Positions 12,712 through 60,820 of a stretch of DNA of 64,000 bases are shown here, in pieces. Both the position numbers and the translations under genes were made by a program. This DNA is from Azolla caroliniana (lineage: Eukaryota; Plantae; Polypodiophyta). Each line of letters opens with the position of its first letter. Position 1 is the stretch's first letter. The stretch lies in contig JBHGNT010000001.1 of NCBI GenBank assembly GCA_043228905.1, positions 10,044,001 to 10,108,000 on the forward strand, in the 5' to 3' direction. A model generated the notes under the pieces. The model made no database searches. It saw only the letters and a list, made by a program, of their open reading frames with translations, and was not told the DNA's origin.

Positions 12712-15700
12712 TCATACATTTGCGAAGAGGCGGTATGTGGTGGCCTCGGATATGATCTGCCGTAAGGATGAGATGCTCCCCAAGAGCATGATGGCCGCGG
12801 CGCCCGACATGATGAGGTAATTCACCCAAAATGTGATGGTCCGTGTGGACGGCTTGAAGATGATGTTGTAGAAGAGCAAAGGCAGGAAGACACAGATGGG
12901 GGTGAAGCCGACTGCGCCCATGAAGGCGCTGAACTCGACGAAAAAGGGGAGCATGGCAGCTAGAAGGGTTGCGGCCGCCACGAAGGCGAAGCGCGAGGCG
13001 AGGCGTGTGGCGAGGTTCCGTGGGGAGAATTTGGAGCTCCCTTGGTCCACCACGGCCGCCTCGAGCCGCTCGAAGGTCGGGTGGAGGTGGATCACCGTGT
13101 ACACGATCAATTGGAGGCACGCGCACGCATTGGCCGTGAAGTAGAGGGATCGTGGGATCAGCGGCCCCGCCCCGCCCCCGTGGAGCATGTTGAGGAGGAT
13201 CACCCCCTCGGCCTTGCTCCCAAATGCCCAATACCCCGTTGCCGCCACCGGGAAGAATGTGAGCACCGCCACCCCGTAGCACACCCCCAACCCTTTCACC
13301 ATCTTCAACTCCACCGGCTCCGCCATCGTCGCCTATGCCAATCATCATCATTCATTCATTTAATTTTACCCCCAGTCCGGCCACAAATTCCATCGACAAA
13401 CAAACAAACAAATCCATTTCTTTTGAAAAAAAATGTTCGAATGGACTACAAATTATAACAATGTTTGAATGGACTGACAAATTAATCCATTTTTAATAAA
13501 GTAGAGAATGGACCGATCACGATCCGATCCGAAACGACATTGGAACAACAAACATAACCCTTGTACCGATCAATGTGTCGCGACATATGTCTTTTTCAAC
13601 TTCTAGGCACACACACACACACACACACACAAACCTCCCTAGCATCTAATAGTTTTTTCTTTTTGTTTTCAGAGCTATATACCACAAATTATAAATTATG
13701 AAGCATCATTAACTCACTTGAATCTCGACCACAAGGGGGTTTGAATAGCTCGTCATCATGACCGAGAACGCCGTGAAGATTCCGAATATTTTGTTCACCT
13801 CCGAGCCTTGCACCATGTAATCGTGAGGCAATGCTTCCTTGGAAAATCCTGAAGGTTAAAGGTTAAAGTGACACCTTATGTTAGGGCCGAGTCTATCTAA
13901 AATGGAAAAATATATCAAAGCTTAGTCATCTAGATGGCAACACTCACCAAAAGTAATAATATGTACAAACAAGGCTAACAAACAAACAAACAAACAAGGC
14001 TCCCCAAGCTTAACAATTAGAAGTTTGAAGGCTCCTCTTAATAGGGGGACACTTGCAATTAAAAAATTTGCTTCATTTTCCTAATATGAAAGCTATGAAG
14101 GGTATCTTTGGAAACGTAATCTTGGATGTCCCCTTCATAGTAAGTAAGTGGTACATGTCCCACTTTATACAAGTCTTTCAAAAGATTTTGTAACTGCTTA
14201 CCACACATTTCAATGCCAAGTGTTGGGTATGCATTTGTATAATATTATGTGTGTGTGCGAGTGTTTATATGTACATATATATATCATAAAAGTTTTAGAT
14301 ATGCAACTTAAATTAAGTCTACAAATAGCGTTTGCTTTATGTTATAAATAATAATTTGCTTGGTTCTTCGGCCTTAATAATGATTTGCTTGGTTGTTCAC
14401 TTGGTATATTTTTATGTCTAGTACATCAACGTACTTTCTTTTTCTAGGGGGGGATTGCATTGCAAAATATTCCATTTGTTTTCCATGTGATCAACTCGAC
14501 ATGTCCTTATTCTAATCGGATTGTCCATATTCGATGTGGTTGCAACCTCTATGTGAGGCACACATACATCTACCGTACAAAACACTTGGGTGTGTAGTTG
14601 GTGACGCGCAGCTATTGCCACTGGTCACAAGAATCGGAAAAAACAAATGAATGGATTGTCCTAAAAAGGGTGCATGACAGAGGCCCAAAAGGTAAGTTAT
14701 TTGACACGTTAGCTCCCTTAAAGGTTAAAGGTTAATGTATTGTTTCGAGAAGAGTTGTTGCGAAACGGGATTGGTTGAAAGCTTAACTTTTAGGACTAAA
14801 ACAATAGAGTTCCTTATGACTTTTCTTGCATTTCAAAAACAACTTGCAATAAAAAAGGAAAAGGTTATATAGTTGGTTATTTTATTCTAATTTATATGAT
14901 CCGTTCTTTGTTCATGATATGCTATCTAATGTTCTCAATGTGTGTGTGTGTGTGACTCACAATTTGTGGTCAATAGTAAACTATGCATGGCAAATAAGTG
15001 TATGGACACACATTGCACATCACGTATTTGTGACCACGTATTTCACACATAATGTGTTCTCTTTTAATATTGCACCTGCGATGAGGGATCCTACTACGGC
15101 GCAAATGCTATAGGTAAAGCATAGTAGAATGGACACCATGTTGAAGTGTCGAAGTGCGTGCATCGATGGGATTTGAGCGAGGAGGAGCACAAGGATTCCG
15201 AAAATAGTTATGAACAAGTACAATTGGAGCGAACCTTCTTCATTGTATGTGTGATACATTTCCTGCACGCACACAATGGAAATAATATTAGATTTGAGTT
15301 ATAATGAATGATTACTGTTATAAAGTGGCAGGGCATGAATGCCATAACCAATGCTTATGAACAGCGTGTGATATTGAACCATTATATGGCCGAGCCCAAT
15401 GTCGGCGAATCACGGGGCCTTCATTATGAATGGTCGAACATTGTATATGTGTGATTTTATTAGGAGAGACAAACTTGGGGCGGGGGGGTACACGAATTAC
15501 CTTGATGGTTTGTCCACCGAGCACGATGCCTCCGATGACCACCAAATAGCACACGGTCAGTTGCAACGGGGCGATGATGTAACATGTGAGCCTCGGACCT
15601 ACAAGGTTTCAAAGTTGTGGGAGAAGTAGATGGCATTAGTGTACATATGTATATGTATGTATGTATGTATTACACACACTATTATAAAATGCTATATGTT

Positions 15701-26864: not shown

Positions 26865-28370
26865 CTTTTTTTTTTCTTGAAAGATTTTCTTCAATAGTAT
26901 TAAAAACATCGAAAAAGTACAAGTAAAAGTTATCTGCCCGTAGGCTTACAACGTAATGTATGTACAACTAAACTTGTACATACAAAAACAACTTATACAG
27001 GGATGTTGAATCTTAAGACGATACATTAACATGTTGGTTTTATATCAAGAAAGGGTCCATGGAAGATGACATTGAGGTATTTGATTTGTCACTACAAAGA
27101 GAGGCACCTTCCTCCATAAGTGAAGAAGCTTCATCCTTCTTTTATGAATATTTTCTGGAGAACCATACATGTTATCATACTGCCCACAAACTATTGTCAA
27201 CAATGTTTCCTATATCTCAAGCGATACCTCTAGAAGACCAAGCTTTGTTGAATCGTAAAGTCGACTGCATCTACATTTCCATAATACCCATAATGTTATT
27301 GTAGTTACAGTTTTCCAGATCTGAACAGATCGCACCTGCTTTTGAGGTTGCTGAAACGGACTAACCAATATCAATCTTCTGTTATGTACTGTCATGGCCT
27401 CTTGTATATCCTCTGCCTCATACAACATCAAGCTGGAGTGTAAAATTCCCCACACCGTTGTTCCCGATGAGAACAAGCAACCAACATTGATCGTTAGGAA
27501 TAAAGAAAGAACTTTATTCCATACTTGCTGAGCCAAGGGACAAGACCAGAGGGCATGCTTAGTAGTCTCCGACATTTCATAGCAAAATCCACATTGCCTG
27601 AGATTATGTGGTACATTCCCTCTTAACGTCTAGCCAACTGGTAATGCTGCATGCACTAATAGCCATCTAAAATTAATAAATTTAGGGCCCCCCTTGAAAG
27701 ACCAGATCCATCTCCAATATGTTTTCAACTGCAACATTGAAACACCCTAGTTAGTCCAATTTTTGTGTGCTGCTGGCGCCATTACATTCATAGACCTTAG
27801 TAATGACCTTCCTAGCTTTACTTAATACTGAAAGAAGGGAACCTTTATGACCTGTTCCTCCAAGGAATATGTCTAGAACCAACCCCTCAAATCCCATAGT
27901 AGACTTGCAACAGGTTCTTTTGCATACAACCACATCATATCACATATATGAGCGATAGAAGGATAAGGATCAAGCAACCACTTCTTTCCCATTTTTGCAA
28001 GCACTTTGACTGGTGCTTTCTATGCGTGTTGAAAATAGTTGCAGTCAAAGGCATGAGGCTGCATTCTATTGTTATCAAGAACCTCAAAATAAGAAATGCA
28101 CCCATTAGGTGAGATACCCTTGACAACCAACAATATTCATTTATGAAGCATCCAAACAAAAAATGCTCTTGTATGGGTTCGAAGGTCACCGCTAATGAGG
28201 AATATGATGGTGAAATGGTAGCCGTCATTATCTTGGCTCCATGAAGAGCTTGTAAATGCGCAAGGTGATCTGTTTGTGACATCTGTTGGAATTGAATCCA
28301 AGTGCTTACAGATGCAGTTGGCACATTATCCAGTTTACCCCAGGCAAGGTGAGTTCTAAAACCCAACACT
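26865..28370 (-). mobile_element. L1-type LINE, 3' portion (zf-RVT region), pseudogenised
   Basis: The minus strand reads CGFCYEMSETTKHALWSCPLAQQVW..LWVLWKCRC. A T-run at ~26865-26877 is a possible poly(A) tail. The element continues beyond the Gypsy insertion at 43133. Confidence 0.75.
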
Positions 28371-28937
28371 TGTGAAGGATCTATATATCGATGGAGTAAG
28401 CTCCTCGATGTCGTTGTGGGATTCAGACCGGCGTATACCCTTTTGATGGCGAATCGGGCGCAGATGGTTGTCGGACACCTCCGAGCCTCACACTCACTTA
28501 ACAACTTATAGATGATTAAGCACAATATCTCTCTCACTCTCTCAAGCTCACTCTCATAGACAATGAGGTAATGAATGTAGACAACAAGAGTAATGAATAT
28601 ATTTATTAACCCTCTTTACTAAGAGGTCTAGCACCAACAAGGAAGAGAGATTAGTGTTCTCTAACTAAACACTTCACTAATCTCTCTTAAGCTTAAAGGT
28701 TACAAGAAGGAGGAGAGGAAGCTCTAGCTCTTAATCACTTAGGAGATCTTTTCAAATGGGAGAACCCCAACAAAGCCACTACTATGTGGTTTATATAGCT
28801 TTCACGTTTAAGGTATGGGCCTTTCACACTTGGACATCTCTTTGCTTCTTTTCCTCTTGCCGTTTCCTCTTCGTACTACGTCCTTGTCGATGCACTCTTA
28901 TTCGTGATTGGTTGTGTTGTTATCCCAGCGCTTAACA
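28371..28937 (-). repeat. 3' LTR of Gypsy-1
   Basis: Direct repeat of 42561-43127, with roughly 25 mismatches by eye. Confidence 0.95.
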
Positions 28938-29561
28938 TCCCCCCCAACCTAATGAGTGCACACTCCCGGGTGCACTGTGGGCGGGGGTCGAGGGAACTTA
29001 AGAGCTTTTGGGAAGCCTTGAGGGGGTGAATGTGGGGGGGAGTGTCGCTGAGTTATCGTTTGAGGCTCCAGGCCCGTGACGTTTAAGGACCAGACCTGCG
29101 ACATGTTTGTCAAAGGGATGGGGAGGGTTTGTGAAACCCTTCTATGGGGTGTTCAGCCTCTTAGTTGTTTAGGCTTGTCGGTTTCTGTGACCTTAACCTG
29201 GGCAGGATATTTGCTTGATGTGTGCGATTTTTGGGTGTCTTGTGCGGGCGTAGTATGATCGTGACTGGGGAGCCGACTTTGTTTCGAGACCCAAAAGCTA
29301 GTGGCGCCATTGTGCCAACCTTGTGCAGTTGTAAGTGTTTTTCTGACTCGCCAAACGGCAGGTTCTCCACAATGCGGTCCTTCAGCAAAAACCGTGTGGA
29401 CGTTCACTGATTCACGTGGTTTGGGTGTTTGTGTTCTAATGTTAGCGTCGCGCTGGACATGGATGGCCAGTGGGTGTTGGCGTTCTATTTGGTTGGGTGA
29501 CTTTGCGCCTTGGGACAGGTGTGGTCCAATCGCGAGTGGGGAGCCGGCTTCGTTTCGGGAT

Positions 29562-30161
29562 CTAGAAGCTAGTGGCGCCTTTGTGCCAACCTTGTGCGGT
29601 TGTGAGTGTTTTTCTGACTCGCCACACGGCACACTCTCCACAACGCGGTCCGTTGGTGAAAATCACGTGGACGTTCACCCATTCACGTGGTTTGGGTGTC
29701 CGTGTTTTGATGCTAGTGTCACGTTGATCATGGATGGTCGGTGGGTGTGGGCCTGCTGTTTTGTTGGGCAACGCCACGCCTTGGGGGTCATCGAGGTCAG
29801 CAGGGTGTGATTTGAGTGTCGTTGCAATGAGGTCCTCAGACTTCATTCCATTTCCCATTTGGAAGGAGACGATGTGCTTGTTGGGCGATAGGAGACATTC
29901 GCTTATGCGACACCAATCTAGACCGAGGAGGCATTGTGTGTTCATCACTTCGGGTGGGAGTACGTGAACTCGGATTGAGTGGGCGTTGTATTCTGTCTTG
30001 ATGTTACACACGAAGGTTCCCAGGTAGCGTGATGTGGAACCATCGAAGCCACGAAAGTTGTTGTTGCACACTTCGAGGTCTGGGAAACCTAGACGTCCCC
30101 ATGTTTCAAAGGAGAAAAGGGTTAGTGATGCTCCTGTGTCGATTACCGCCGTCAAAGGCAT
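29562..30161 (-). CDS. Extra retropepsin-like aspartic protease domain downstream of the Gypsy-1 integrase
   Basis: AVIDTGAS catalytic motif, GFDGS flap-like segment and CLLGLDW C-terminal motif. Same reading frame as the integrase ORF. Confidence 0.75.
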   Translation of the reverse strand: MPLTAVIDTGASLTLFSFETWGRLGFPDLEVCNNNFRGFDGSTSRYLGTFVCNIKTEYNAHSIRVHVLPPEVMNTQCLLGLDWCRISECLLSPNKHIVSFQMGNGMKSEDLIATTLKSHPADLDDPQGVALPNKTAGPHPPTIHDQRDTSIKTRTPKPREWVNVHVIFTNGPRCGECAVWRVRKTLTTAQGWHKGATSF

Positions 30162-30245
30162 GTCATCAACGTAGCACTATAGTTGTATTGCTCCTTCATT
30201 CGAGTTGAATGCCTTAGCCATGGCTGTCGGATGGGTGTGCCCTTG

Positions 30246-31430
30246 TCACTTCAATTTCGCTTGCGTATTGCGAAGGTTGGTTTCGAGTCGGGCCATTCGG
30301 CTTTCAGAGGCTTTAAGTTTGGCTTCTACTTCTTGTTGCCGAGCCGTGAGTAGAGTCTCGAGGGTGAGGGGTCCATAGTAATGTTTGAGCTTGCTCCCAT
30401 TGATGAATCCGGGGATATCGATGCCTTCGAGCGTGCGTAGGCGACATGCTCCTGTCTTGGTAATCTCCGAGACTACATATGGGCCCTCACCACGTAACTT
30501 AAGCTTCTTCTTGTGTCGTTGAGAGGCAAATTTGAGGGCCATGTCTCCTTCATCGAGATCTTTGTTCCTTACTTTATTGTCGTGCCACACCTTTCTATTG
30601 GCTTTCTCTGCCAAGAGTGCTTGGAAGGCGAGAAGGCGAGTTTCGGTTAACCGTTCTAGGTTCTCTAGATGTGACGGGAGGGGGTCCTTGGCCCATCGTT
30701 CTTGTACGACTATCTTGAGGCTGGGGACCTGGAACTTGATGGGTAATACTGCTTCTTGTCCATACACTAGTTTGAATGGTGTGTGGCGAGTTGTGACTTT
30801 GTAGGAAGTACGGAAAGCCCATAATGCCGCTTGGAGTTTGGTGCTCCAATCAGACCGTGAGGTGGAGATTATCTTTGTGAGCACTGCACATAATACCTTA
30901 TTCGTGCTTTCCGCTTGTCCATTGCATCGAGGGTAATAAGGAGAACTCTTGCGGTGTGTCACCATAAATTCGGCTAGTAAATGTGCTATCACTTCGTTGA
31001 GGAAGTTGGAGCCTTGGTCGCTAATGATTTCGAGTGGACATCCAAACCGTATTATGACATTTTCATATAGGAATTTGGCAGTGCTACGCGCGTCGGCGTT
31101 AACGCAAGATTTAGCTTCTACCCACTTGGTAGTGTAGTTAGTGGCGGTTATTATGTATCGATTGAGGTTGGAAGCTAGGCTGATTGGGCCGATAAAGTCG
31201 ATACCCCATTTCTCGAATGGTTGCCATGCCACCACCGGCTTTAACGTATTGAAATCCTCTTTTAGTGGGTGTTTGAAACGTTGGCACTCGTCAAAATGGA
31301 GTACATACTCGTATGTGTCTTTGAAGAGTGTTGGCCACCATAGGCCGGACTGGAGGATCTTGCGCGCAGTGACCTCGTGATTGAAATGACCACTTCTGCT
31401 TCCGCAATGAGCTTGTTCGAGGGTGGTGAC
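30246..31430 (-). pseudogene. Gypsy-1 integrase
   Basis: PFEKWGIDFIGP..YTTKWVEAK..FGCPLEIISDQGSNF..YYPRCNGQAESTNK..GPY. The N-terminal zinc-binding part is frameshifted. Confidence 0.9.
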
Positions 31431-31481
31431 GACGTCGAGGTCTGTGACACACCTCCACAGTAGATCGTCGTTACCACGTTG

Positions 31482-33012
31482 CTACAAGTTGCCTCTGAGC
31501 ATCGTGAAGGGGCCACATTTCTTTAACAAGACATGCGCGTGTGCCCGGGGTAGTTGTTTGAGGAAGGATGCTCCTTCAGTTAGGACTTGAACAATGTCTG
31601 ATGCCCATGCTGGTACGGTGTTGATCGTGAATAATGCTGCATCTGGTGTTTCATCGTTGACCCTAGTGGCTTCTTCTCCGTTTGGTATCCGGGAGAAATG
31701 ATCAGCGAGTACATGGTCTTTGACTTTTCTCACCACTACCTTGAAGTCGAACTCGAGTAACATTACGATCCATCGGGAGATTTGTCCGGTGGCGTGAGTT
31801 TTATTTACCAGGTAGAGTAGGGCCTGATGATCTACAGAAAACGAGAATCGTGATGCTAAGAGGTAGTGGCGGAATTTTTTTACGCTGTAAACCATGGCCA
31901 AAGCTTCCCATTTCGTCATGGAGTAATTTTATTTCATGGCGTTTAGTTGGCGACTAGCGAAGATGACCGGTAGATCGACTGCCCCTTCGCCAGGTTGAGC
32001 TAGCACTGCACCAATCCCGAAGGCGGAAGCGTCCGTGTGAACGTGGAATTCTTTGGTCCAATTTGGGGGCCGGAGGATGGGGGCCGGAGGATGGGGGCCT
32101 TAGTTAGGCACTCTTTCAAGAGCTTGAAGGAATGTGTGCATTCTTCTGTCCAAGCGAACTGCTTTAGTAGCGCATAGAGCGGTCTGGCCTTGTCTGGGAA
32201 CATCTTAATGAAGCGTCTATAGTAACTTGCGTATCCCATGAACCCTTGTAGTTGTTTCTCGTTCGTGGGAGGTGGCATGTCGAGGATGAGTTTTACTTTT
32301 GCCTCATCGGTCGAGATCCCATGGCAGGACACAACGTGCCCTAATATTAATCCGTGCTTGACCCAGAACTGACACTTGAGTGGGTTGAGAGAGAGTTGAT
32401 AGGCCCGACATTTTTCGAATGTCAAGTGGAGTAGCGTCAGGTGGTCATGCCACTTCGAATAGCAGCATAAGTCGTCAACATAAGACTCCACCCCTTGTCG
32501 TAACCTTGCTGCGAAGATATGGTTCGCCGCTCTTTGGTAGGTGCTCAAGGCACTTATGAGTCCGAAAGGCATTTGCTTATACGCGAACGTACCAAATTCA
32601 GTGCCGAAGGTTGTCTTGTGTTGATCCTCAGGTACCACCGAGATTTGGTTGTACCCCGAGAACTCGTCGATGAAACTATAAGCTTCGGCTCCCGTGATTC
32701 TTTCAAGTAGATGCTTGATGTAGGGCACTAGGTAGTTGTCCTTGATGGTGGCTTCGTTGACTTGATGGTAGTCGACACATATGCGTATCTGGCCATTTTT
32801 CTTTGGGACGACTACAATCAGGGAGACCCAAGTAGTTCGTTCGATGGGGTAGATGATGCTTGCGGCCACCATTTTGTTGATTTCGGCTTTTACTTGTTGG
32901 GCGTAGTTAGGATTCATTGGGCGCGGCCTTTGCCGGATTGGGCGGGCGTCGGCTCGCATGGGGATACTATGGGTGACGACCTTAGCTAGGACCCCCTTCA
33001 TATCGACGTACG
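31482..33012 (-). pseudogene. Gypsy-1 reverse transcriptase and RNase H
   Basis: PIRQRPRPMNP..VVVPKKNGQIRICVDY..FSGYNQI..MPFGL..YVDD; RH EALAMVYSVKKFRHYL..DHQAL. A 14-bp duplication of GGGGGCCGGAGGAT at 32065-32092 shifts the frame. Confidence 0.9.
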
Positions 33013-33339
33013 TGTTGGTAGACAGGTCCCTCCGGATGGTGCAGCCCGGTATGAACCGGATGAGGAGAACCCGACTTCAGAGAGTCGGATGGTGCAGGCC
33101 CGGTATGAACCGGATGAGGAGAACCCGACTTCGGAGAGTCGGATGGTGCAGGCCCGGTATGAACCGGATGAGGAGTACCCGACTGCGGAGAGTCGGATGG
33201 AGCCCATCGAGGCTACATTTGTAAATAGCCGAAGAGTCATATTAGTATAAATATGACTTAGGGAAAACTTTTATGTGGGTTGTCATTCTTGTTGTTCTTC
33301 TTTCTTGTTGGTGCAAGAAGAAATCAGAGCGCGTAACTG

Positions 33340-33392
<53 letters not shown>

Positions 33393-36300
33393 GAGGTCGT
33401 TGCCTTTGTTGTAACCGCCGCCTGTGGCGAAGATCTGAGAGCACGAGGTCGTTGCCTCGGTGATCTCACTGTTGTATATTTCTGCATAGTGACAGTTTGC
33501 AGCTTGTGGGCTGTCGTGGTTTTTTCCCTATTTTGGGGTTTTTCCACGTATACCTCCTGTGCACCTCTCCTTCTCCTCTTTTGTGTCGCGTTTCATTACC
33601 TGTTTTTTCTGTGTATGTAAATAATCTCGGTTGTGGCCGAGCGTCGGACATAAGGAACCTCGAGTCCCCAACAAGTGGTATCAGAGCGAAATCGACACAG
33701 AAAATGGACGAATCGTTTGGCGGCATGTTCAAGCTCACCGGCTCCAACTATTCAGTGTGGAAGTCGAAGATGAGGGACATGCTCGTGGTAAAAGACCTCT
33801 GGCTGCCGGTTCAGTTCGGGGACAAGAGACCGGACAAAATCGACGCTGCGATATGGGAGGTGATGCACATGAAGACAACGGCGTACATACGGTGCTTCAT
33901 TGACATGAGCCTGTACAACAACTTCAATGAAGAGAGTAAGGCTCATGAACTCTGGGAGAAGATCGGCACAATGTTCCAGAACAAAAACGCTGTCAATCAG
34001 GCGTCGATATTCCGGAAGCTTGTAAGACTCCGGTACCAAGATGGCCACAGCATGGCGGAGCATATGAATGCCTTCCAGGGGCTGATTCACCAGGCAACGT
34101 CATTGGAAGTACCTCTTGCCGATGAGGTCCTAGCGCTACTCCTGCTCGGTTCCCTCCCGGATAGCTGGGAGACGTTGGTTGTTACTTTGGGCAACGCCGG
34201 GCCGGAAGGAAAACGACTATCCCTAGCAAGAGTAAAGTCGAGCTTGCTAGATGAGGAGGCTCGTCGGAAAGACAAAGATACGAGCTCCGACTCCAAAGCG
34301 CTCCTTACCGAATCGGAACGCGGAAGACATGGAAATCGTAGTCCCCAGAACCGGGAGAAGTTGGGGACACGATCAAAGTCAAGGGGGAGGCCTACTTGCT
34401 TCTATTGCGGCAAGCCGGGACACTTCCAAAAGAACTGTCGGCATTTCCGTAAAGACAAGGAAACCGACGGTACCGATTCGAAGCAAACCCCGAACCGGAA
34501 CGGTACAGACCGGAACGGTAAAGACTGGAGGGGGCCGGACCGGAAGGGAACGACGGCAATTGCGGCAAGTGAAGAGGAGTTGATGCTCATCACCGAGGAA
34601 AGTGAGATAAACCATGCCGGCGATGAGATGACCTGGGTGGTAGACTCCGGAGCGTCGTTCCACCTTACCCCGGACCGGAAATGCTTCTCATCCTACTCAG
34701 CCGGTGATCACGGCTGTGTCCGGATGGGGAATGAAGGAACATGCCGAATTGTCGGCATAGGAGACGTGTGGCTGACAACACCAACCGGATGTAAGTTGCT
34801 GTTGAAAGATGTCCGACACGTTCCGGAAGTTCATCTGAACCTGATATCAGCCGGTCGGCTAGATGATGAAGGTTACACGGGTAGCATCCGGAACGGTGTC
34901 ATGAAGTTCAGCAAAGGGAGCCTGATTGTGGCTCGGGCCCGGAAGGTAAACACACTGTACCTGATGAATACCCGGTTATGTCCGGAAGAAGTGAACGTGG
35001 CTTCCGACACTACCGGTGAGCTGTGGCACAAGAGGCTATGTCACATGAGTGAGAAGGGGATGAAGAGGCTTAGAGACGACAACCTCATTCCAGTGAAGAA
35101 CGTGCACTTAGAGAAGTGCACTGATTGTCTGGCCGGTAAGCAGAACCGGACCTCCTTCCGACAAAGGCCACCGATGAGACGTAATGCACCACTGGAGTTG
35201 GTGCATACGGATGTTTGTCAAGTAGACACGAAGTCACATGCCGGAGCGCAGTACTTCGTGACGTTCATAGATGACCACAGCCGGAAGCTGTGGGCCACAC
35301 CGCTGAAGACGAAGGATCAGGTGTTATCCGTCTTCAAAGAGCTCCACGCGAGAGTGGAAAGAGAAACCGGCCGGAAGCTGAAGGTGGTTCGAGCAGATAA
35401 CGGAGGTGAGTACCGGGGGCAGTTCGAGGAGTACTGCCGCTCGAAGGGAATCCGGCTCGAATTTACCGTGCCGAAGATGCCGGAACTAAATGGACTGGCC
35501 GAGAGGATGAACCGGACCATAATGGAGAGGGTCCGGAGTATGCTAGCGCATGCAAAACTACCCAAGGAGTTTTGGGCCGAGGCACTGTCGACGGCGACAT
35601 ATGTGATAAACAGATCACCCTCAGTACCCTTGGACGGAGACACACCACAGAGAGTATGGACCGGTAAGGAAGTGTCCTACCGGCATCTGAGGGTGTTCGG
35701 GTGTCTCGCGTACGTGCATGTAGCAAAGGACCGGAGAGGAAAGCTAGATCCAAAGACCCGGCCATGCATATTCCTCGGTTACGGTGACGATGAGTTCGGC
35801 TACCGAGTGTGGGACCCGGTCGACAAGAAGGTATTCCGGAGTCGAGACATTATCTTCATGGAGGACAAGACGCTCGCCGACTGGGAGTCGGAGAAGAAGA
35901 TAATGAACTCCGAGCCGACCGGTAAGGATAGACTCTACAATGAGCAGACCCAACCGACAAGAGACCGGTTAGCACTCGAGGAACCAGCCGGTTACGGTGA
36001 GGATACCGAACCGGCAGAAGAAGAAGTAGAGGAAGCTGAGACCGGAACCGGTCAAGACCCCGAATCGGATTCGGATGAAGAGCAAATGGAGGAACCGATT
36101 ACCGAAGCCCGAAGACGTAGATATCCTCTCAGAGAGAGAAGGGCGCCCCGGAGATTTCCGGATGCAGAGCATGTCCTGCTGACCGATGAGGGGGAGCCGG
36201 AAAGCTTCGAAGAAGCGAAGGTTGACACCCACAGCCGAAAATGGTTAAGTGCCATGCAGGATGAGATGGATTCCCTGCATGAGAACCATACATACGAATT

Positions 36301-38048
36301 GGTGGAGCTGCCGAAAGGAAAGCGGGCACTCCGAAACAAGTGGGTATTCAAGTTGAAACCGGGAGATGCCGGCAACCCCCCGAGATACAAAGCCAGGATC
36401 GTGGTGAAGGGGTTCCAGTAGAAGAAGGGCGTGGATTTCGACGAAATATTCGCCCTGGTAGTAAAGATGACTTCCATCCGGACGGTGCTGAGTATAGCAG
36501 CAAGCATGGATCTCGAGGTAGAGCAGCTGGACGTGAAGATGGCATTCCTTCACGGCGACCTCGAAGAGGAGATCTACATGCAGCAACCGGAAGGGTTTGT
36601 GGAGAAAGGGAAGGAGCACCTGGTATGCCGGTTGAAGAAGAGCCTATACGGACTGAAGCAGGCTCCCCGTCAATGGTATCGGAAGTTCGACTCCTTCATG
36701 ACCGATCAAGGGTACCACAAGACGCAGGCCGATCACTGCGTGTTTGTGAAGAAGTTCGAAGGAGGGGACTTCCCTATACTCCTCCTGTACGTGGATGACA
36801 TGTTGATCGTCGGACGAGACCAAGGAAAAATACGGATGCTGAAGAAGGCTCTCAACCGTACCTTCTCAATGAAGGACTTGGGTCCGGCAAGACAGATGTT
36901 GGGGATGCACATCATTCGGGACCGGTCAGTGAAGCAACTATGGCTGTCACAGGAGAAGTATGTGACAAAGGTGCTTCACCGGTTCAACATGTCAGATGCA
37001 AAACCGGTCGGATCGACACTTCCGGCAAACTGCAAGTTGTCCGGCAAGCAAAGCCCGAAGACAAAAGGAGAGAAGGCAGATATGATGAAGATTCCATATG
37101 CCTCTGCCGTCGGGAGCTTGATGTACGCAATGGTTTGTACCCGACCGGACATTGGATACGCAGTCGGAGTGGTGAGCCGGTTCATGAGTAATCCCGGCAA
37201 GGAGCATTGGATCGCGGTCAAGTGGATACTCCGGTATTTGAAGGGAACTTCAAATATGTGCCTCCGATTCGGCACCGGAAAACCTCAACTGGACGGTTTC
37301 ACCAATTCGGACATGTCGGCTGATGTGGATACCAGCCGGTCTACATCCGGGTATGTGATGACATATGCAGGGGGAGCTGTCTCGTGGCAGTCGAGGCTGC
37401 AGAAGACGGTTGCATTGTCAACCACAGAGGCGGAATACATGGCGGCTGTGGAAGCCGGCAAGGAAATATTATGGATGAAGGACTTCATCGGAGAGCTCGG
37501 TATCCAGCAAGAGGAATACCGACTCTACTGCGACAATCAAAGTGCCATCCACCTTGTTAAGAATGCTGCCTACCATTCCCGGACGAAGCATATCTAGCGG
37601 AGGTATCACTGGATTCGGGAAAGGGTAGATGACCAAGAGTTCGCACTGGCGAAGATCCACACGGCCGAGAACGGGTCGGATATGTTGACCAAAGTGTTGA
37701 CACCCGACAAGCTGGACGCATGCCGGAAGAGGATCGGGCTGGAAAGACACCCCATGCCGGAGTGAAGGGGGAGTTTGTTGGTAGACAGGTCCCTCCGGAT
37801 GGTGGAGCCCGGTATGAACCGGATGAGGAGAACCCGAGTTCGGAGAGTCGGATGGTGCAGGCCCGGTATGAACCGGATGAGGAGTACCCGACTGCGGAGA
37901 GTCGGATGGAGCCCATCGAGGCTACATTTGTAAATAGCCGAAGAGTCATATTAGTATAAATATGACTTAGGGCAAACTTTTATGTGGGTTTTCATTCTTG
38001 TTGTTCTTCTTTCTTGTTGGTGCAAGAAGAAATCAGAGCGCGTAACTG

Positions 38049-38097
<49 letters not shown>

Positions 38098-38378
38098 GAG
38101 GTCGTTGCCTCTGTTGTAACCGCCGCCTGTGGCGAAGATCTGAGAGCACGAGGTCGTTGCCTCGGTGATCTCACTGTTGTATATTTCTGCATAGTGACAG
38201 TTTGCAGCTTGTGGGCTGCCGTGGTTTTTTCCCTATTTTGGGGTTTTTCCACGTATACCTCCTGTGCACCTCTCCTTCTCCTCTTTTGTGTCGCGTTTCA
38301 TTACCTGTTTTTTCTGTGTATGTAAATAATCTCGGTTGTGGCCGAGCGTCGGACATAAGGAACCTCAAGTCCCCAACA
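33013..38378 (+). mobile_element. Complete Ty1/Copia LTR retrotransposon (Tnt1/Tork-like; Copia-1) nested between PR and RT of Gypsy-1
   Basis: LTRs 33013-33673 and 37776-38378 (TGTTGG..CCAACA). TSD GTACG. PBS TGGTATCAGAGC (tRNA-iMet) at 33676. PPT GAAGGGGGAG at 37764. Confidence 0.97.
33704..37765 (+). pseudogene. Copia-1 gag-pol polyprotein (~1353 codons) with two in-frame TAG stops
   Basis: CFYCGKPGHFQKNC, WVVDSGAS, LWHKRLCH, RADNGGEY, SLYGLKQAPRQW, LLYVDDML, ALSTTEAEY. TAG codons at 36419 and 37595, probably from CAG. No frameshift seen. Confidence 0.93.
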
Positions 38379-38383
38379 GTACG

Positions 38384-39648
38384 AACATGCGAACACGTCG
38401 CTAAATTCTGTGAGGAGGGTGATCAAAGACATCTCCTCGTCCGACTGGAGATCTGCGGCTATGAACACTGGTTTGGAGTCCGTCCCTTTCCCGAGGTTGA
38501 TTTCTTTCACCCTTGCCGGTCCATCATAGACTTCTCCTAGGCCTTGGGGGGTGCGTTGTGGTCTCTTACAAGCCACTGCTCGATTCTCTTGTTCATAAAG
38601 TTTGAAATGCTCTGGGAAGTCCACTTCCGTCGAGGTCTTCTGAGTGGTCATGGCGTCACTTGGACGTGTGAACCAGGTCTTCATCCTTTACGTCCACTTG
38701 TTTTCGTTGGGATCTGAGGGTGGTGACGTTGAAGCAAGAGATTGTGTCTCCATCCTCATCACAACACTTTGTACCTATAGGGTACATTGCGTCGGTTGTG
38801 GCGAGAGCATGTACCCAATTCATCTCTGACGTCTCGGAAGTGACGGATTGGTCGTCTCTCTCACGTACGTTCCCCTCTTTGGAATTGGCGGGTTTTTGGG
38901 GAAACGGTTGGCCTCTGGCCAAGAGTTGAACTGTCTTTATGGGGTTGCACGCTAGGAGGTTGGTCTCGAACTCGGTGGTTTTTGACCAATCGTCTACGAG
39001 AGGGCTGCCTTCTTGTTCATGCAGTTTTTGTGTGTATGCTTTGATGTGGAAGGTTTTGTTGTCTTTACGCATATAAATTGTATCGTTCCCGAAATCCGTT
39101 ACCAGGAGGCTTATATGTAGGAATGGTCTTCCTAGTAAGCACTCGTAGGCCACAAGGTTCGATGATCTTGTGACGACGAAGGTGAGATTGAACTCCACTC
39201 CGTGGATAGTGAAGTGATGCGTAGGGATCATGCCTTTCGGCCTTTGGATGGACCCATCTGCCATTCGTAGTTTGACATCTGAAGGAAGCATTTTTGGGCT
39301 CCCCCACTTACACCAACATTCGTAGCTGATGATACTTACCCTTGCTCCGGTGTCAATGATTGCGTCACACGTCTTACCATTGACGTAGACTGGTAGAGTG
39401 AAACTAGTATCGTCACTCTCGAAGTGAGCTTCACGTATATTGACTAGTGGTCCTTCAGGTTGCTTGAGGACTATGGACGTATGAGGAGCATGTGTGTGTA
39501 TCCATTGAGGCGTCGGAGAACATCGTGCCATGGTTGAATGTTGAGTTTGAGTAGTTGTTCGAGCGTGAACTCTATCTCCTTGGCGAGTAGAGGTCGTAGT
39601 AGGGGGTTGTCGGCTACGAAGGTGCCAGTGTAGCTCTGCACTTCGCAT
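38384..39648 (-). pseudogene. Gypsy-1 canonical aspartic protease and PR-RT linker
   Basis: DAIIDTGARVS..MADGS..CLLGRPFL; linker VKEINLG..PVFI..LLTEFSDVFA. Confidence 0.85.
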
Positions 39649-39821
39649 AATGTAGGTCGTAATCTTAAATTTAAGATTTGCTGGAGTAGGGCTGTGTTGA
39701 CCTCTTTGATCAGGGTAGGATGGCAGGTGGGGGTGTCAGTTGGTGTGACGATGGGGGAAGGTGAGGGGTTTACCCATTCTTCCAGTTGGTCGAAGTTTAA
39801 GCTTGGGAGACTAAGTGATTT

Positions 39822-41884
39822 TTAGAACTGTTCATGGCGTATGAGTTTAATGTATTCTTCAACCTTTTGTTTCTCAACTACTGGGTTTGGGTATGCCGCT
39901 AGATGTGCCGGTAGTTCTTGGTTAGGATTGACGAGTAATGTTTCTATGTCTCCCTCCGGTTCTTGACCTTGTTTTGAGGCTTGCGTGGATGTATTTTTTC
40001 TAGATTTTCGTCTCTTACGCGTGGCCGCGGGGAGACCTTGATCTTGGTATTTTAAATTGTGAGCTACTCGCTGGGCTCGTGTGATGACATTGGCGCCGAT
40101 CGTGGATGGTACAATGGACAACAGATTTGTGCTGACCCTTTTCTTCTTTTCTGGGCAATCAAGTACTAAGTGTTCCTTACTGCACCCTGGGCATGATGCT
40201 TCTCTTTGGAACCATTCGATAAGATCTTGCGACTGTTGGGTGAGACCTTGCACCAGTGGTTGTGGGGGTGTGTCAAGTGGGGGATGTCGTGGTCGTTGTG
40301 CCATCCGGTTGTAGTATTCATGTTTGGTTGGGCATTCGCTAACCATATGTGGGCCTTGGCAATTGAAACATTTCAATTCTGACCTCCTTAGACTGTTGTT
40401 GTTGCGATATCCCATTGGGGGCCCATGTTGTTCCCCTCTTAGGACGTACACTGGTATTTGGTCACCTTCAAAGTCCACGAAGTGGGACAACACCTCTTCT
40501 TCAACACCATACTCTCGGTACGAGTCTTCATATTAGGGGGCGCTCGCCCCGACCTGGGTTTGGTTATCCGTGGTATATTCTAGTTCGGCGAGGCGGGCGC
40601 CGATGCGTGGTAGTGGGGGTTGTTGGGGGAGTATCGCTGGTAGTTGTGGGCAGCTAAGCGGTGGAGGTGAGCATGGGTGCTCTACCGTTGGTGTCTGGCC
40701 GTACCTTTTGGTGGGGGCCAACAGTTCTCTTGAGGATGCATCACGAAAGCTTTGCACCACTTACAATATTGCGGCCGTCGTAGATGGAGGAGGGGACACT
40801 CATGTCCTGTGTGGTGGTCGTGGCATACCGTGCACCTTACATTTTCTCTTTGGGTGTATGCTTGGGGTCTTTCTATACGGGGTGGTCGTGGGTTGTTCGT
40901 GGGTGCTTGAGTGGGTATCCGTAACCCACTCATTGAATCTTCAAAGGTCATCACTACTGTGCAGGCTTCAATGAACGACCGACACATCATGGCAATCAGG
41001 AAATTTTGGAGTGTCGGATCGAACAACCCATTAATGAAATGGCTCATCAATTTGTCGTCTGACATCTTGTCACTCGGACTACAATGATGGTGCAGGATTT
41101 TCGTGCGATGTATGTAGTCCCTGACTGTTTCGTTCGCTTCTTGCTTGGGCGAAAAGTTGGTAAATCGGGTTCCATTTATTCCCTTGACGAGCGAAGTTTA
41201 TCAAGAAATCTTCAATGACATACTCGAAATCCGTGGCGATGTCTTCATTCAAGGTTCGAAACCAAATTCCGGCTTGGTCATCAAGTGTAAACCCAAACCG
41301 AGAAAACGGGGTACGAGTTTAGAAATGGAAGCACTCTTCCCGCTGTCGTTTGTGAGGTTTCTCGGATGGTCTGTGGGTGCGCGCTCTTTTTCTATCAATG
41401 CTACGAGAGTTTGGATGGATTGTAGCGCTAGTGCGAGTTCGGCGTTTGGGGGTGTAGGGGTAGCTTGGTCGGGTGTAGGGGTTGTGCCCATGCGTGGTGG
41501 TGTCGGGTGTCGTTGTGTGTGGGCTTCGTTTGGACTATCGCCCATTGTGCTCGAATTCGGTACGGGGCCGCATTCATGACCTCGGCCATGCATGTATGAC
41601 GATGTTTCGAGGAGGTGAAGTTTTTGTTGCACTCGTGTGAATCTATCTTTCCTTTCCGCCAAAGCGGCTTCGATATCTTGAGTGATGCTTTCCGGTTGTC
41701 CTCCTTTCACGAGCTGTACCGTCCATAGATTGATTTCGTGTTCTATCACCCGTAACTCCTGCGCGGCGTCTCGTATGTGTCGCTCTGTGTTGAGTGGGTC
41801 TGCCATTGGGCTCTCCTGTAGTGGGGGCGTGTTGAGAGGTGCTTTAGTTCCTGGGCTCGATGGGAGGTTCACGTTTGGTAGCAT
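39822..41884 (-). pseudogene. Gypsy-1 gag, fragmented, with several Cys/His knuckles
   Basis: SHFINGL capsid-type motif. Knuckles CTVCHDHHTGHEC, CKWCKAFVMHPQENC, CFNCQGPHMVSEC and CPGCSKEHLVLDC. Confidence 0.75.
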
Positions 41885-42536
41885 CCCTGGAGTTAGCCAC
41901 CCTCTATGGTACCGAGTCAGGTTAGGTGGGACGACATCGTGTGTTTGGTTGGTTTGGGTGGATTCGTCCTGGTGTGTGGGTCAATGAGGATCCGGCCATG
42001 TTTTCTTGTCAAGCTTTTGTAGGTTCGTCGAACTTTGAATCTTTCGTTGAATGATGAGGGTTCGTCGAATGACCAACCTTCGTCGAATGAGGAACCTTCT
42101 TCGAATGATGAACCTTTGTCGAAGGATGCTTCCCTTATCGAACTCTGTTCTTTCGACGAACTTTGCGTGGGGAATTTGAATTTGTTGGCGCCAACGGTCA
42201 TTTTGTGTCCCGTGGGATAATCGTAATCCGCGAGAATTGTGGTGGTTATGCTTGCCTTGTAACGGCTCAATCTCCACAATGTTTAGTGTTAACTGAACGA
42301 ATAGCTTGTTGATGTCCGGGCGATTAAGAGGGGGTAGTTCAAAACTTCTTTTAAAAACAGAAAATCAACTTAATTAAACTATGAATTAGTGGGAAAAACA
42401 GAAAATCAACTTAATTAAACTATGAATTAGTGAGAAAAAACAAAAAATAGTGGTTCCCTTTTCAATTTCTTCCTTCGTTAAGTGGGTTGCCTACGAGTTT
42501 TTGACTACTCAAAATAGGCTTCAAGCGTCGGTAGTA

Positions 42537-42554
42537 TCCCCGGCAGCGGCGCCA
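42537..42554 (-). promoter_or_regulatory. Primer binding site of Gypsy-1 (tRNA-Asp)
   Basis: TGGCGCCGCTGCCGGGGA lies 6 nt inside the 5' LTR and is complementary to the 3' end of plant tRNA-Asp with one mismatch. Confidence 0.85.
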
Positions 42555-42560
42555 AATAGA

Positions 42561-43127
42561 TGTGAAGGATCTATATATCGATGGAGTAAATTCCTCGATG
42601 TTGTTGCGGGATTCAGACCGGCATATACCCTTTTGATGACAAATCGGGCGGAGATGGTTGTCGAACACCTCCGAGCCTCACACTCACTTAGCAACTTAGA
42701 GATGATTAAGCACAATATCTCTCTCACTCTCTCAAGCTCACTCTCATAGACAATGAGGTAATGAATGTAGACAACAAGAGTAATGAATATATTTATTAAC
42801 CCTCTTTACTAAGAGGTCTAGCACCAACAAGGAAGAGAGATTAGTGTTCTCTAACTAAACACTTCACTAATATCTCTTAAGCTTAAAGGTTACAAGAAGG
42901 AGAAGAGGAAGCTCTAGCTCTTAATCACCTAGGAGATCTTTTCAAATGGGAGAACCCCAACAAAGCCACTACTATGTGGTTTATATAGCTTTCACGTTTA
43001 GGGTATGGGCCTTTCACACTTGGACGTCTCTTTGCTTCTTTTCCTCTTGTTGTTTCCTTTTCGTACTACGTCCTTCTTGATGCGCTCTTATTCGTGACTG
43101 GTTGTGTTGTTATCCTAGCACTTAACA
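42561..43127 (-). repeat. 5' LTR of Gypsy-1
   Basis: Direct repeat of 28371-28937. Confidence 0.95.
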
Positions 43128-43132
43128 ACACT

Positions 43133-47759: not shown

Positions 47760-48968
47760 ACATTTGAGCAATTTCAACCGTTATACATTGAAGGTTTTTG
47801 AAGTCCTATGCATAAATCTTCAATTGTAAAGAAGGGAGACATATGTGAAAAAGAATCATAACACGTCATTTTTTCAACAAGAGGTAGCTCATATAAATTT
47901 TTACTATGCATAGATAAGTTAAGAAGCGTTAAGTCACAATAACTCTGAACACGTTTCCATTTATATATTCCCCAAAATTTAGCATATGGATGTGTTTTTT
48001 CTTGTGTTTGAGAAATTGTTGAGTACCTTCCCATATTCATCTCTTTCTTTAAATAAGCCTTTTGTCCTCATTCAATTGCTTTTGATAATTTTCTTTATCC
48101 TTGACTACATCCAAAATCATAAGGCAATTCCAAGCTTCATGGAATTCTTCATCAAACCATACTTTATACATGGGTGCTCACTTATAGTTCATGCTCAAGT
48201 ATGTTTGTTTATTATCTTCAATGGCCTTCTCACAATCAAACATATGCATACATTTGATGTCAAGTCCAGTGATCGAATTCCAGTGTCCATTCACCAAGTG
48301 AGAATATGTGTACATACGATCCAAAATACCTTTGGATACTAGCACATAGTCAATCACACTATTTCCATTGTGTTTTCTACATGTAAAACTATTAATGTTG
48401 GGCCATAAGGATACAATATCATTTGCAATAAGAATTCCTGTATTATTGCACATTTGTAGGAGTAATTTCCCAAACTTGGTCAGTATACTTTTTATCACTA
48501 GAAGAGCCACTATACATTTGTATATCCTTTTGCATCCTTGAGATATGTAGCGTGAACGATTGTTGTGCATCAAGTCGGAAACATCTTGTATAGGCATTCA
48601 TGTCACCAAGGACAATAATTATGCCTTTGTATTTGAAATAAGGAATATCATCTTCTAGATTGGCAAAAGATTGATCTTTATCTAAACAAGCATAAACGTT
48701 AGGGGTTTCTATTTTGAGCCATATGTAGAATTTATGGTCATCATTTTTTTATGATTGACACATATTTCTTTATTTCCTTCTTAATCAAACATGTTAGCCC
48801 TCCTTGTCCTCATCACTGTCTTAGATTTTTCACCCATATCAAATAGTGTACATTATAGTTTCCTAAACCTTGATTCCTTTTCATGCTTCCATTTTTCAAC
48901 AAGACGTGTGATATCTGATTCATTTGTGAACTCCTCTATGCCAAATCCTGTATTCCATGGGTATCTAT
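47760..48968 (-). pseudogene. LINE apurinic-endonuclease remnant
   Basis: The minus strand gives IIVLGDMNA (~48610), FGKLLLQMC and SFTC..GNSVIDYVLVS, the APE-type endonuclease motifs. Confidence 0.7.
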
Positions 48969-49399
48969 TGTTAGGAAACAGATCCCTCCGGATGGGATAG
49001 GAGTACCCGGCAACGGAAGACCCGGTGAGAACCGGATGACGAGTGCCCGGCAAGAGCCGGATGGTGAAGGCCCGGTGAGAACCGGATGACGAGTGCCCGG
49101 AAAGAGCCGGATGGTGAAGACCTGGTGAAAACCGGATGACGAGTGCCCGACAAGAGCCGGATGGTGAAGACCCGGTGAGAACCGGATGACGAGTGCCCGA
49201 CAAGAGCCGGATGATGCAGGCCCGGTGAGGAGTGCTCATCGGATGAAGGGACATATTCGTAAATATGTTTTTGAGAGTCCATTGGGACTATATTTGTAAA
49301 TAGCCGAAAAGTCATATTAGTGTAAATATGACTTAGGGCAAATTTAGAGAGAGAGGTGTGTGATTATCGTTGTCGCGATAATTTTGTGCGTAATTGTGT

Positions 49400-49436
<37 letters not shown>

Positions 49437-52400
49437 GAGGTCGTTGCCTCTGTTGTAACCGCTGCTTGTGGCGAAGATAGCAAGCTCGAGGTTGTTGCCT
49501 CGGTGCTTTACTATTGTACATTGTGATATAGTGATAGTTTGTAGTCCGTGGGTTGCCGTGGTTTTTCCCTAGTTTGGGTTTTCCACGTAAACATCCTGTG
49601 TACTCTTCTCTTTACTGTATCGTGTATCCATTACCCGTTTTTCTGTGTTTGATCCTAGACTCGGTTGTGGCCGAGCGTTGTTTTTAGAGAGCGTGTAGGC
49701 CGGACAAAGTAGTATCAGAGCGAAACGACATAGAAAAATGGACGATTCGTTGGGAGGCATGTTCAAGCTCACCGGCTCCAATTACTCATTGTGGAAGTCG
49801 AAGATGAGGGACATGCTCGTGGTTAAAGATCTTTGGTTGCCGGTTCAGTTCGGGGACAAGAGACCGGACAAAATCGATGCCACGATATGGGAGGTGATGC
49901 ACATGAAGACAACGGCGTACATACGGTGCTTCATCGACATGAGTCTATACAACAACTTCAATGAAGAGAGCAAGGCTCATGAGCTCTGGGAGAAGATCAA
50001 CATTATGTTTCAAAATAAAAATGTTGTTAATCAGGTTTCGGTATTTCGGAAGCTAGTAAGACTCCGGTACCAAGATGGCTCCAGCATGGCGGAGCACATG
50101 AATGCCTTCCAGGGGTTGATACACCAGGCAACATCATTGGAAGTACCTCTCGCCGATGAGGTACTAGCACTACTCCTGCTCGGTTCCCTCCCAGATAGCT
50201 GGGAGATGTTGGTTGTCACTTTGGGCAACGCCGGGCCGAAAAGGAAACAGTTATCCCTAGCAAGAGTGAAGTCGAGCTTGCTAGATGAGGAGGCGCATCG
50301 AAATGATAAGGATACAAGCTCCGACTCCAAAGCGCTCCTTACCAAATCGGAATGCGGAAGACAAAGGAACCGTAGTCCCCAGAACTGGGAGAAGTTGGGG
50401 ACACGGTCAAAGTCAAGGGGGAGGCCTACTTGCTTCTATTGCGGCAAGCCGGGTCACTTCCAGAAGAATTGTCGGCACTTCCGAAAAGACAAGGAAATCG
50501 ACGGCATTGATTCGAAGCGGACATCGGACTGGAACGGTAAAGATCGGAAGGGATCAGACCGGAAGGGAACGACGACAATCACGGCAAGTGAAGAAGAGTT
50601 GATGCTCATCACCGAGGAGAGTGAGTTGAACCTTGCCGGTGATGAGATGACCTGGGTGGTCGATTCCGGAGCGTTGTTCCACTTTACCCCGGACCAGAAA
50701 TGCTTCTCATCCTACACAGCCGGTGATCACGACTGTGTCCGGATGGGGAATGAAGGTACATGCCGAATTGTCGGCATAGGAGACGTGTGGTTGACAACCC
50801 CAACCGGATGCAAGCTGCAGCTGAAGGATGTCCGACACGTTCCGGAGGTTCGACTGAACCTGATATCAGCCGGGCGGCTAGATGATGAAGGCTACACGGG
50901 TAGCATCCGGAACGACGTTATAAAGTTCAGCAAAGGGAGCCTGATTGTGGCTCGGGCCCGGAAGGTCAACACTCTGTACCTGATGAATGCCCGGTTATGT
51001 CCGGAGGAAGTGAACTTGGCATCCGACACTGCCGGTGAGCTGTGGCACAAGAGGCTGTGTCACATGAGCGAGAAGGGGATGAAGAGGCTTGCAGACGACA
51101 ACCTCATTCCAGTGAAGAATGTGCACTTGGAGAAATGCACGGATTGTCTGGCCGGTAAGCAAAACCGGACCTCCTTCCGACCAAGGCCACCGATGAGACG
51201 TAATGCACCACTGGAGTTGGTGCATACTGATGTGTGTCAAGTGGACACGAAGTTACATGCAGGATCGCAGTACTTCGTGACGTTCATAGATGACCACAGC
51301 AGGAGGCTGTGGGCCACACCATTGAAGATGAAGGATCAGGTGTTATCCGTCTTCAAAGAGCTCCACGCGAGAGTGGAAAGAGAAACCGGCCGGAAACTGA
51401 AGGTGGTTCGAGCAGATAACGGAGGTGAATACCGGGGGCAGTTTGAGGAGTACTGCCGCTGGAAGGGAATCCGGCTCGAATTTACTGTGCCGAAGACGCT
51501 GGAACTAAACGGGCTGGCCGAGAGGATGAACCGGACCATAATGGAGAGGGTCCGGAGTATGCTGGCGCATGCAAAATTACCCAAGACATTTTGGGCTGAG
51601 GCGCTGTTGACAGCGACGTATGTGATAAACAGATCACCCTCAGTGCCCTTGGACGGAGACACACCGGAGAAGGTGTGGACCGGTAAGGAAGTGTCCTATC
51701 GGCATCTGAAGGTATTTGGGTGTCTTTTGTACATGCATGTAACTAAGGACCGGAGAGGAAAGTTAGATCCGAAGACCCGGCCATGCATATTCCTCGGTTA
51801 CGATGACGATGAGTTGACAAGAAGGTATTCCGAAGGTTGAGATATTGTCTTCATGGAGGACAAGACGCTCGCCGACTGGGAGTCGGAGAAGAAGATAATG
51901 AACTCCGAGTCGACCGGTAAGGATCGATTCTACGATGAGCAGACCCAACCGGCAAGAGACCGGTTAGCACTCGATGAACCGGTCGGTGACGGTAAGGAGA
52001 CAAGACATGCCGAAGAAGAAGGAATAGGTGAAACCGGAACCGGCCAGGATCCCTAATCGGATTCGGATGAAGAACAAATAGAGGAGCTGGTTGCCGAAGG
52101 TCAAAGATGGAGATATCCTCTTAGAGAGAGAAGGCCCCCCCGAAGATTTCTGGATGCAGAGCATGTGCTGTTGACCGATGAGCAGGAGCCGGAAAGCTTT
52201 GAAGAAGCGAAGGAAGACACCCACAACCGCAAATGGTTAAGTGCCATGCAGGATGAGATGGATTCCCTGCATGAGAACCATACATACGAATTGGCGGAGT
52301 TGCCGAAAGGAAAACGAGCACTCTGAAACATGTGCCAGGTGTACAAGTTGAAACTGGGAGATGATGGCAACCCCCCGAGATACAAAGCTAGGATCGTGGC

Positions 52401-60400: not shown

Positions 60401-60820
60401 CTGTTGACGGCGCGCATACGACAGCTGGAGCGAAGACCGGAGGACGTGGAGCAGGCCGCGGAAAAGCTTCGGGTGGCAAGGACGAGGAACAAAGCCCGGT
60501 TCGACCGGACGCATCGGCTCCGACCGAAGAAGATCGAGGAAGGCGACTGGGTGCTAGTCTACGACAGGAGCCTCGACAACCAGCACCGAGCGACACGGCA
60601 GTTCGCAAGAAGGTGGTTCGGGCCTTACGTGGTACAAAGCGCCAACGACAACGGGACGTACCATCTGGCGGAACTCGACGGCACGAGAATGTCGATACCG
60701 GTAGCTGGGAAGCGGATCAAAGCGTTCAAGAAGCGTCACGATGACGAGCCGGATCCGGATAACCTGGACCGAGACGACGAACGATCCGAAACCGAACAAG
60801 AACCGACGGGCGGGGAATAA
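57395..60820 (+). pseudogene. Element B pol (RT-RNase H-integrase), in the -1 frame relative to gag-pro
   Basis: SAPYSNRWFTVPKK..LRFIQDLQ..DLYSGYDQ..LPQG..PFLDDIPIKG; RH VDTSPTGIG; INT H..GH..YWW..CESCQ, DRGE, YNPEVNGKVERGH, WFGPY. Deletion or frameshift near 59307 and ~60050. Confidence 0.9.

Follow-up and report, generated by a model that had tools for sequence, protein, structure and literature searches.

A Ty3/Gypsy retrotransposon family of Azolla caroliniana with a second retropepsin domain behind the integrase

Introduction

LTR retrotransposons and retroviruses are usually described with one protease, which lies before the reverse transcriptase (RT). Retropepsins are established homodimers that cut their own polyprotein (see also PMC11358816 and PMC2642776). 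As for domains added to the polyprotein, the only ones that the REXdb feature table gives for any Gypsy lineage are aRH, CHD and CHDCR (PMC6317226). The Tat elements with a post-integrase aRH (structure 3) and the chromoviruses, as the accessible parts of the sources describe them, carry such an extra domain behind the integrase (PMC13468544; PMC6317226), as does the Azolla family reported here; in those elements it is an RNase H or a chromodomain, whereas in the Azolla family it is an aspartic protease.

Two other systems offer partial parallels. Ginger1 DNA transposons, according to the available part of PMC2836005, likewise combine a Gypsy-like integrase carrying a GPY/F motif with a C-terminal protease, but they are DNA transposons with terminal inverted repeats, and their protease is an Ulp1 or OTU cysteine protease. 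In the bdelloid LTR retrotransposons with an enzymatic ORF3, an enzyme has likewise been captured downstream of pol, although there, in the text available, it takes the form of separate ORFs for a GDSL esterase or a DEDDy exonuclease and not of a fused protease (PMC5408684).

Likened by features alone, and from the accessible parts of the descriptions, the nearest known elements are Athila and the aRH-less Tat (Z1, Z2), which are OTA non-chromoviruses (PMC6317226; PMC10508981; PMC13468544). The common features are the Gypsy order, a 5-bp duplication, a tRNA-Asp primer site, a single GAG-POL frame and the GPY motif; additionally, Athila likewise lacks an additional RNase H (the full-length records of the Azolla family have one RNase H region), and the size of the Azolla element falls in the Athila range. 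By contrast, the REXdb feature table gives Athila no extra polyprotein domain (PMC6317226), while in the Azolla family the integrase is followed, in frame, by a coiled coil, another retropepsin and a tail of repeats. Other lineages are less similar. The mark of Tat (TatI-III, Ogre, Retand), an additional RNase H, was not found in a Pfam scan of the full-length records, and no Pfam match to a chromodomain after the integrase was obtained in the window element or in those records. Nor are the marks of Phygy and Selgy (a 4-bp duplication and a tRNA-Trp or tRNA-Ala primer) matched by the Azolla element, with its 5 bp and tRNA-Asp.

The combination of an integrase and a following protease was found neither in the REXdb feature table nor in the titles and abstracts of the searchable full-text literature, a search that did not extend to Repbase, GyDB or subscription journals; in the available text of PMC10508981 the word "protease" does not occur. 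An earlier note on this DNA had allowed that the architecture might already be catalogued, and for the REXdb feature table this is not the case, as it holds no such extra domain. As far as the searchable literature shows, a Gypsy polyprotein with two proteases would thus be a previously undescribed architecture.

The element in the window

The window, that is, the whole stretch of 64,000 nucleotides that was analysed, holds on its minus strand a decayed Ty3/Gypsy element of ~9.4 kb once a nested Copia is subtracted (Table 1). Its domain order (PR-RT-RH-INT), two LTRs, target duplication, primer site and purine tract are those of Ty3/Gypsy, and its Pfam domains follow one another as gag, PR1, RT, RNase H, integrase and a second retropepsin (PR2).

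Table 1. Features of the Gypsy element, in positions of the window
Feature	Position	Strand	Remarks
5' LTR (TG...CA)	42561..43127	-	95.6% identity with 3' LTR
Primer binding site for host tRNA-Asp(GTC) (complementary to its 3' end)	42537..42554	-	
gag region (capsid, zinc knuckles)	39501..41980	-	disrupted by stops and frameshifts
PR1, ordinary pre-RT retropepsin	39058..39396	-	Pfam; DTGA 39354-39343
Nested Ty1/Copia in PR1-RT spacer	33013..38378	+	duplication GTACG; LTRs 98%
Reverse transcriptase	32078..33012	-	YVDD 32482-32471; frameshift at end
RNase H	31680..32084	-	limits approximate
Integrase (zinc domain, core, GPY motif)	30360..31481	-	GPY 30485-30477
Predicted coiled coil	30249..30338	-	heptad pattern in sequence; pN/pS 0.17
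INT-PR2 linker	30177..30248	-	in-frame stops 30248-30246 and 30179-30177 in window copy
PR2, second retropepsin domain (D-T-G, flap, LLG motifs)	29865..30176	-	DTGA 30140-30129, GFDGS 30050-30036, LLGLDW 29930-29913
First tail repeat, W-x7/8-[AV]QG[WY]-x-x-G-x4-W-x-PK	29565..29681	-	stop 29564-29562 after
Second tail repeat	29290..29410	-	frame shifted in window copy
Polypurine tract	28938..28950	-	
3' LTR	28371..28937	-	
Target duplication ACACT (5 bp)	28366-28370 and 43128-43132		flanks both LTRs

The earlier note had described an ordinary protease before the RT and a second, different retropepsin after the integrase and a coiled-coil-like tail, and had asked for an HMM search. Both domains were recovered with the Pfam model gag-asp_proteas (E 4.5e-10 for PR1; E 3.2e-8, above its cut-off, for PR2), and they are distinct, at 24-30% identity. 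The integrase frame (31481-30249) runs into a TGA, a 22-codon linker and a TAG, after which the same frame stays open for 204 codons (30176-29565). The note was therefore right about the frame and about the TGA at 30248-30246; the TAG, which it had put at ~30181, lies at 30179-30177. The W-rich tail motif is present in two copies after a linker 3' of PR2, and the tail DNA repeat (29247-29785) is ~80% identical.

Other features of the window were also recorded. The nested Copia and another at ~48966-52983 are related (86% identical) and have LTRs in which an AG microsatellite occurs together with tandem repeats of 25 bp. The region ~52980-63500 is made of nested copies of a further Gypsy lineage, which is GC-rich, with LTR-like repeats at 54606-55246 and 60894-61534 (97%). 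Exons of a host gene lie at 295-3090 (+), a host amino-acid transporter exon (Aa_trans) at 12715-13332 (-) and a LINE-like zf-RVT fragment at 27213-27629 (-). Elsewhere in the genome, large tandem clusters with matches to the 3' end of tRNA-Asp occur at C8:16322774-16328601 (with a 968-bp spacing), at C10:5143941-5152379 and on C11 and C15 (162 matches overall).

PR2 across the family

The two-protease architecture is real and family-wide in the Azolla genome. When the junction was used as a DNA query, 133 candidates were obtained. Each of the 40 that were scored spans at least 613 of its 651 bases, and the 39 besides the window copy show 86-92% identity. Among the 150 scored matches of an integrase search, 74 belong to the family (73% identity or more). 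PR2, whose absence from other members would have spoken against the earlier note, lies downstream of 67 of these 74, within 800 bases in 60 cases and further off in 7, as judged against 127 of 150 PR2 matches (weak fragments were dropped). The remaining 7 integrases have break points that differ from one another, which rules out a PR2-less subfamily. A search of the genome for further kinds of PR2 led to places that, where they could be matched, belong to the same family.

Thirty junction loci were taken, two of which may be one place assembled twice. Integrase and PR2 share one frame, at a spacing of 255-261 nt, in 28 of the 29 that could be scored, and 10 of the 29 have no stop between them. 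The stops of the others fall at nine positions, each in at most 6 of the 28 in-frame copies; as few copies share any position, they look like decay after insertion and not like a programmed signal. Programmed read-through was likewise rejected, there being no common stop. Two readings had been left open by the earlier note, a single PR-RT-RH-INT-PR2 polyprotein and a separate 3' protease ORF. The latter is contradicted by the lack of any stop common to more than 6 of the 28 copies and by the absence, in diverged copies, of the Met before PR2. The former is borne out by copies that are open over the junction, for 868-999 codons from RNase H or integrase through PR2 to the tail (most copies have one or two tail motifs), and by full-length records. 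Three ENA records, P0121 and P0122 (2553 aa) and P0124, run uninterrupted from gag to tail with two protease stretches (range 2454-2553 aa), in the order GAG-PR1-RT-RH-INT-PR2-tail; these are possibly collapsed repeats, and their source may be the same species or one closely related to it. Dating is thin because few copies gave LTR pairs: of the further full-type copies, 1 in the 12 that were tried, and of the 12 non-autonomous ones, 5.

Selection on PR2

Selection was estimated by pairwise codon comparison of variants seen at least twice, with shifted-frame controls and without correction for mutation bias. In the main set, 18 distinct copies holding PR1, INT and PR2, pN/pS is 0.11 for PR1, 0.08 for RT, 0.10 for INT and 0.17 for the coil; it reaches 0.31 (0.20-0.46) in PR2, 0.30 (0.14-0.57) in the tail motif and 0.69 (0.39-1.33) in the linker. 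A larger, partly redundant set agrees (PR2 0.29), and in shifted frames PR2 gives 1.00 and 0.94 (37 copies). The neutral evolution that the earlier note had considered is thus not what is seen, and the substitution pattern indicates that PR2 is under purifying selection. Since its pN/pS is 0.31 against ~0.1, with shifted frames at ~1, it is constrained, yet less so than the core enzymes. The D-T-G triad is intact in 21 of 37 PR2 copies and in 15 of 23 PR1 copies.

Fold, catalytic motif and origin

PR2 has the marks of a retropepsin, namely D-[TS]-G, a flap, the hydrophobic-hydrophobic-G motif and the Pfam match, together with the fold in a predicted model. The AF2 model from a diverse alignment has a pLDDT of 88 and a pTM of 0.78; a first model of PR2 plus tail, from close copies only, had a pLDDT of 39. 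In Foldseek the PR2 model is matched best by the protease-like domains of DDI1 (E 4.7e-7, TM 0.70-0.77), which is a host gene that also has ubiquitin-related domains, and by retroviral proteases. PR2 resembles DDI1 and the retroviral proteases (PDB 3s8i, 7d66, 1fmb) in fold and in D-[TS]-G, but identity is ~20% and nothing indicates that PR2 derived from DDI1. A sequence search of the PDB gave for PR2 only matches at E 0.07-0.27, to retroviral proteases and DDI1. In an alignment of 26 rows, at 21-41% identity to the first of them, the catalytic Asp does not vary. PR2 is predicted to be catalytically active.

In the phylogeny of PR1 and PR2 for which the earlier note had called, the two are separated by a path of 2.3-2.6 changes per site, and a recent duplication of PR1 is thereby ruled out as the source of PR2. 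PR1 falls together with the pre-RT proteases that sister families carry (86/87, which is short of the starred level), as is expected for the ancestral enzyme.

A non-autonomous subfamily

Twelve of the 40 scored matches have one common junction, in which the PR1 spacer is joined directly to PR2 and RT, RNase H and integrase are deleted in frame. These copies (L081, L082, L083, L099 and L137-L144) are ~6.0-6.8 kb long and read GAG-PR1-PR2-tail in one frame; in 5 of them the two LTRs share 97-99% identity. Their PR2 has a pN/pS of 0.56 (0.40-0.82), against 0.56-0.64 in neighbouring linkers, and D-T-G is kept in 4 of 12 PR2 and 9 of 11 PR1 copies. As selection resembles that of the linkers and the triad persists in 4 of 12, retention of PR2 here may be incidental. 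A fixed loss of catalysis in this group was considered and rejected, the motif variants being scattered over the tree. L085 has a different deletion, with the coiled coil retained. In a distant lineage, P0150 also has the spacer-then-PR2 order (E 8e-11) and, going by that order, may be a parallel derivative.

Sister families and distant lineages

In the nearest sister families of the Azolla genome (5 loci, RT 50-53% identical where present), pol ends after the GPY motif; they have no PR2, and instead carry a separate 3' ORF with coiled coils. These families (L113-L117) are young and numerous, their pol is nearly intact (up to 1965 aa), and the separate ORF, on the sense strand, reaches 934 aa, is rich in coiled coils and has no credible Pfam match.

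A word-based protein search with the integrase tail, PR2 and repeat region gave no matches, whereas profile searches did find relatives. One of 1.84 billion representatives returned 102 matches, 40 of which were scanned; many of the 102 are ordinary pre-RT proteases, and a subset has the same coil before the protease and the motif W-x7/8-[AV]QG[WYF]-x-x-G-x4-W-x-P after it. Two more profile searches gave 3 and 26 proteins. Integrase, coil, protease and motif follow in a single frame in Adiantum nelumboides (MCO5610456.1, MCO5581925.1, MCO5596803.1, MCO5560501.1, MCO5603546.1) and in records P0112, P0138, P0139 and P0141. Judged from these sequences, the layout is found in at least three distant lineages, including this fern, with the catalytic Asp retained. 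The distant records are partial, cut or spliced before RT, and none extends back to PR1, so that two proteases are shown for the Azolla family alone. Identity between the family and the distant lineages is ~56-68% in the integrase (the Adiantum type was compared) and 20-30% in the PR2 region. The PR2 rows from outside the family form a supported group (100/98 in one tree, 93/95 in another), and the family PR2 is a separate long branch; the test of a single PR2 clade gave a p-AU of 0.29, which does not reject such a clade, nor do the trees establish it.

Several further arrangements were noticed. In one distant lineage (L156:3576-5135) a separate coiled-coil-like ORF of 520 codons follows INT-PR2-tail, and, as both are present there, PR2 and an extra 3' ORF can coexist. 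Records P0007, P0011, P0019, P0033, P0052 and P0057 apparently have two retropepsins with no integrase between them; in P0011, P0019 and P0057 there are two Pfam protease stretches, another two-protease layout. In P0141 the zinc-binding domain of the integrase is doubled ahead of the core. Viral contigs gave no matches, metagenome contigs gave 2 loci, one of them relevant and ending before RT, and Atlas searches with the tail and with the fern module gave only leads below 0.9.

Possible roles of PR2

The explanation that we consider best, although we would believe it about as readily as doubt it, is that PR2 is a selected second protease, predicted to be active, that processes its own polyprotein at the integrase end. 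It would be synthesised only as the C-terminus of full-length Gag-Pol and would enter the particle together with the integrase; the coiled coil would pair two PR2 units and so form the active site, and the enzyme would then release the integrase and the tail, dividing the work with PR1. It is not evident why self-processing would call for a second enzyme, because PR1 is intact and better conserved and the sister families with PR1 only are younger and numerous. The constraint on PR2 in the non-autonomous copies, no stronger than on their linkers, also speaks against this explanation, as does the lack of a visible PR1 in the partial records of the distant lineages. Furthermore, amino-acid sites change ~3 times faster in PR2 than in PR1, which would fit a host target or relaxed constraint. 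It is possible, if rather doubtful, that PR2 is an active protease directed against host proteins, such as silencing, ubiquitin-linked or chromatin factors; the same doubt covers, jointly, the details of this proposal, in which PR2 would enter the nucleus with the integrase and the W-rich tail would serve as a recruiting motif. Its evolution faster than that of the core enzymes, its divergence between lineages next to that of the integrases, its gain as an accessory that sister families lack and the analogy of Ginger1, with an Ulp1 or OTU protease C-terminal to a Gypsy-like integrase (PMC2836005, in the part available), all point in that direction. However, the resemblance to DDI1 is one of general fold, and pre-RT proteases likewise vary strongly among lineages (PMC6317226, in the part available).

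Catalysis might also be beside the point, PR2 being kept as a dimerisation module with weak catalysis or none, by which the integrase or the tail is organised. The preceding coiled coil and a constraint below that of PR1 would suit such a role, and the Thr and Gly of the retropepsin motif also serve the fold; but the catalytic Asp is invariant in 26 diverged rows and motif variants are scattered over the tree instead of being fixed in a clade, and we regard the proposal as improbable. Highly improbable, in our judgement, is a relocation, by which the wider lineage would have its main protease behind the integrase and only some families, such as the Azolla one, would possess both. In Adiantum and the other distant records no PR1 can be seen, and the p-AU of 0.29 leaves room for monophyly of all PR2; yet those records break off before RT, which makes the absence uninformative, and PR1 groups with the sister-family pre-RT proteases. 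The two stops in the window copy and the 7 of 74 integrases without PR2 could suggest that PR2 is a separate 3' ORF or has been left behind, as a neutral remnant, by a second element, but this is already largely refuted and its chance close to negligible, given purifying selection with frame controls, the constant in-frame spacing, the differing break points of the 7 exceptions and the same layout in distant lineages.

Significance

A broader proposition, possible but rather doubtful, is that of an old, undescribed Gypsy lineage of ferns, and perhaps of other seed-free plants, with two unrelated active retropepsins in a single polyprotein, the second of which would cut host proteins, delivered with the integrase, as a counter-defence. 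The finding marks a lineage under-sampled by current plant references, in which, according to the accessible part of PMC11358816, non-angiosperms are under-represented; pipelines that demand the canonical domain order would miss such elements. The post-integrase protease, common to distant lineages, would join chromodomains and aRH as a new class of accessory domain, and it raises the question of whether such a small domain shares in polyprotein processing or is a transposon protease used against the host.
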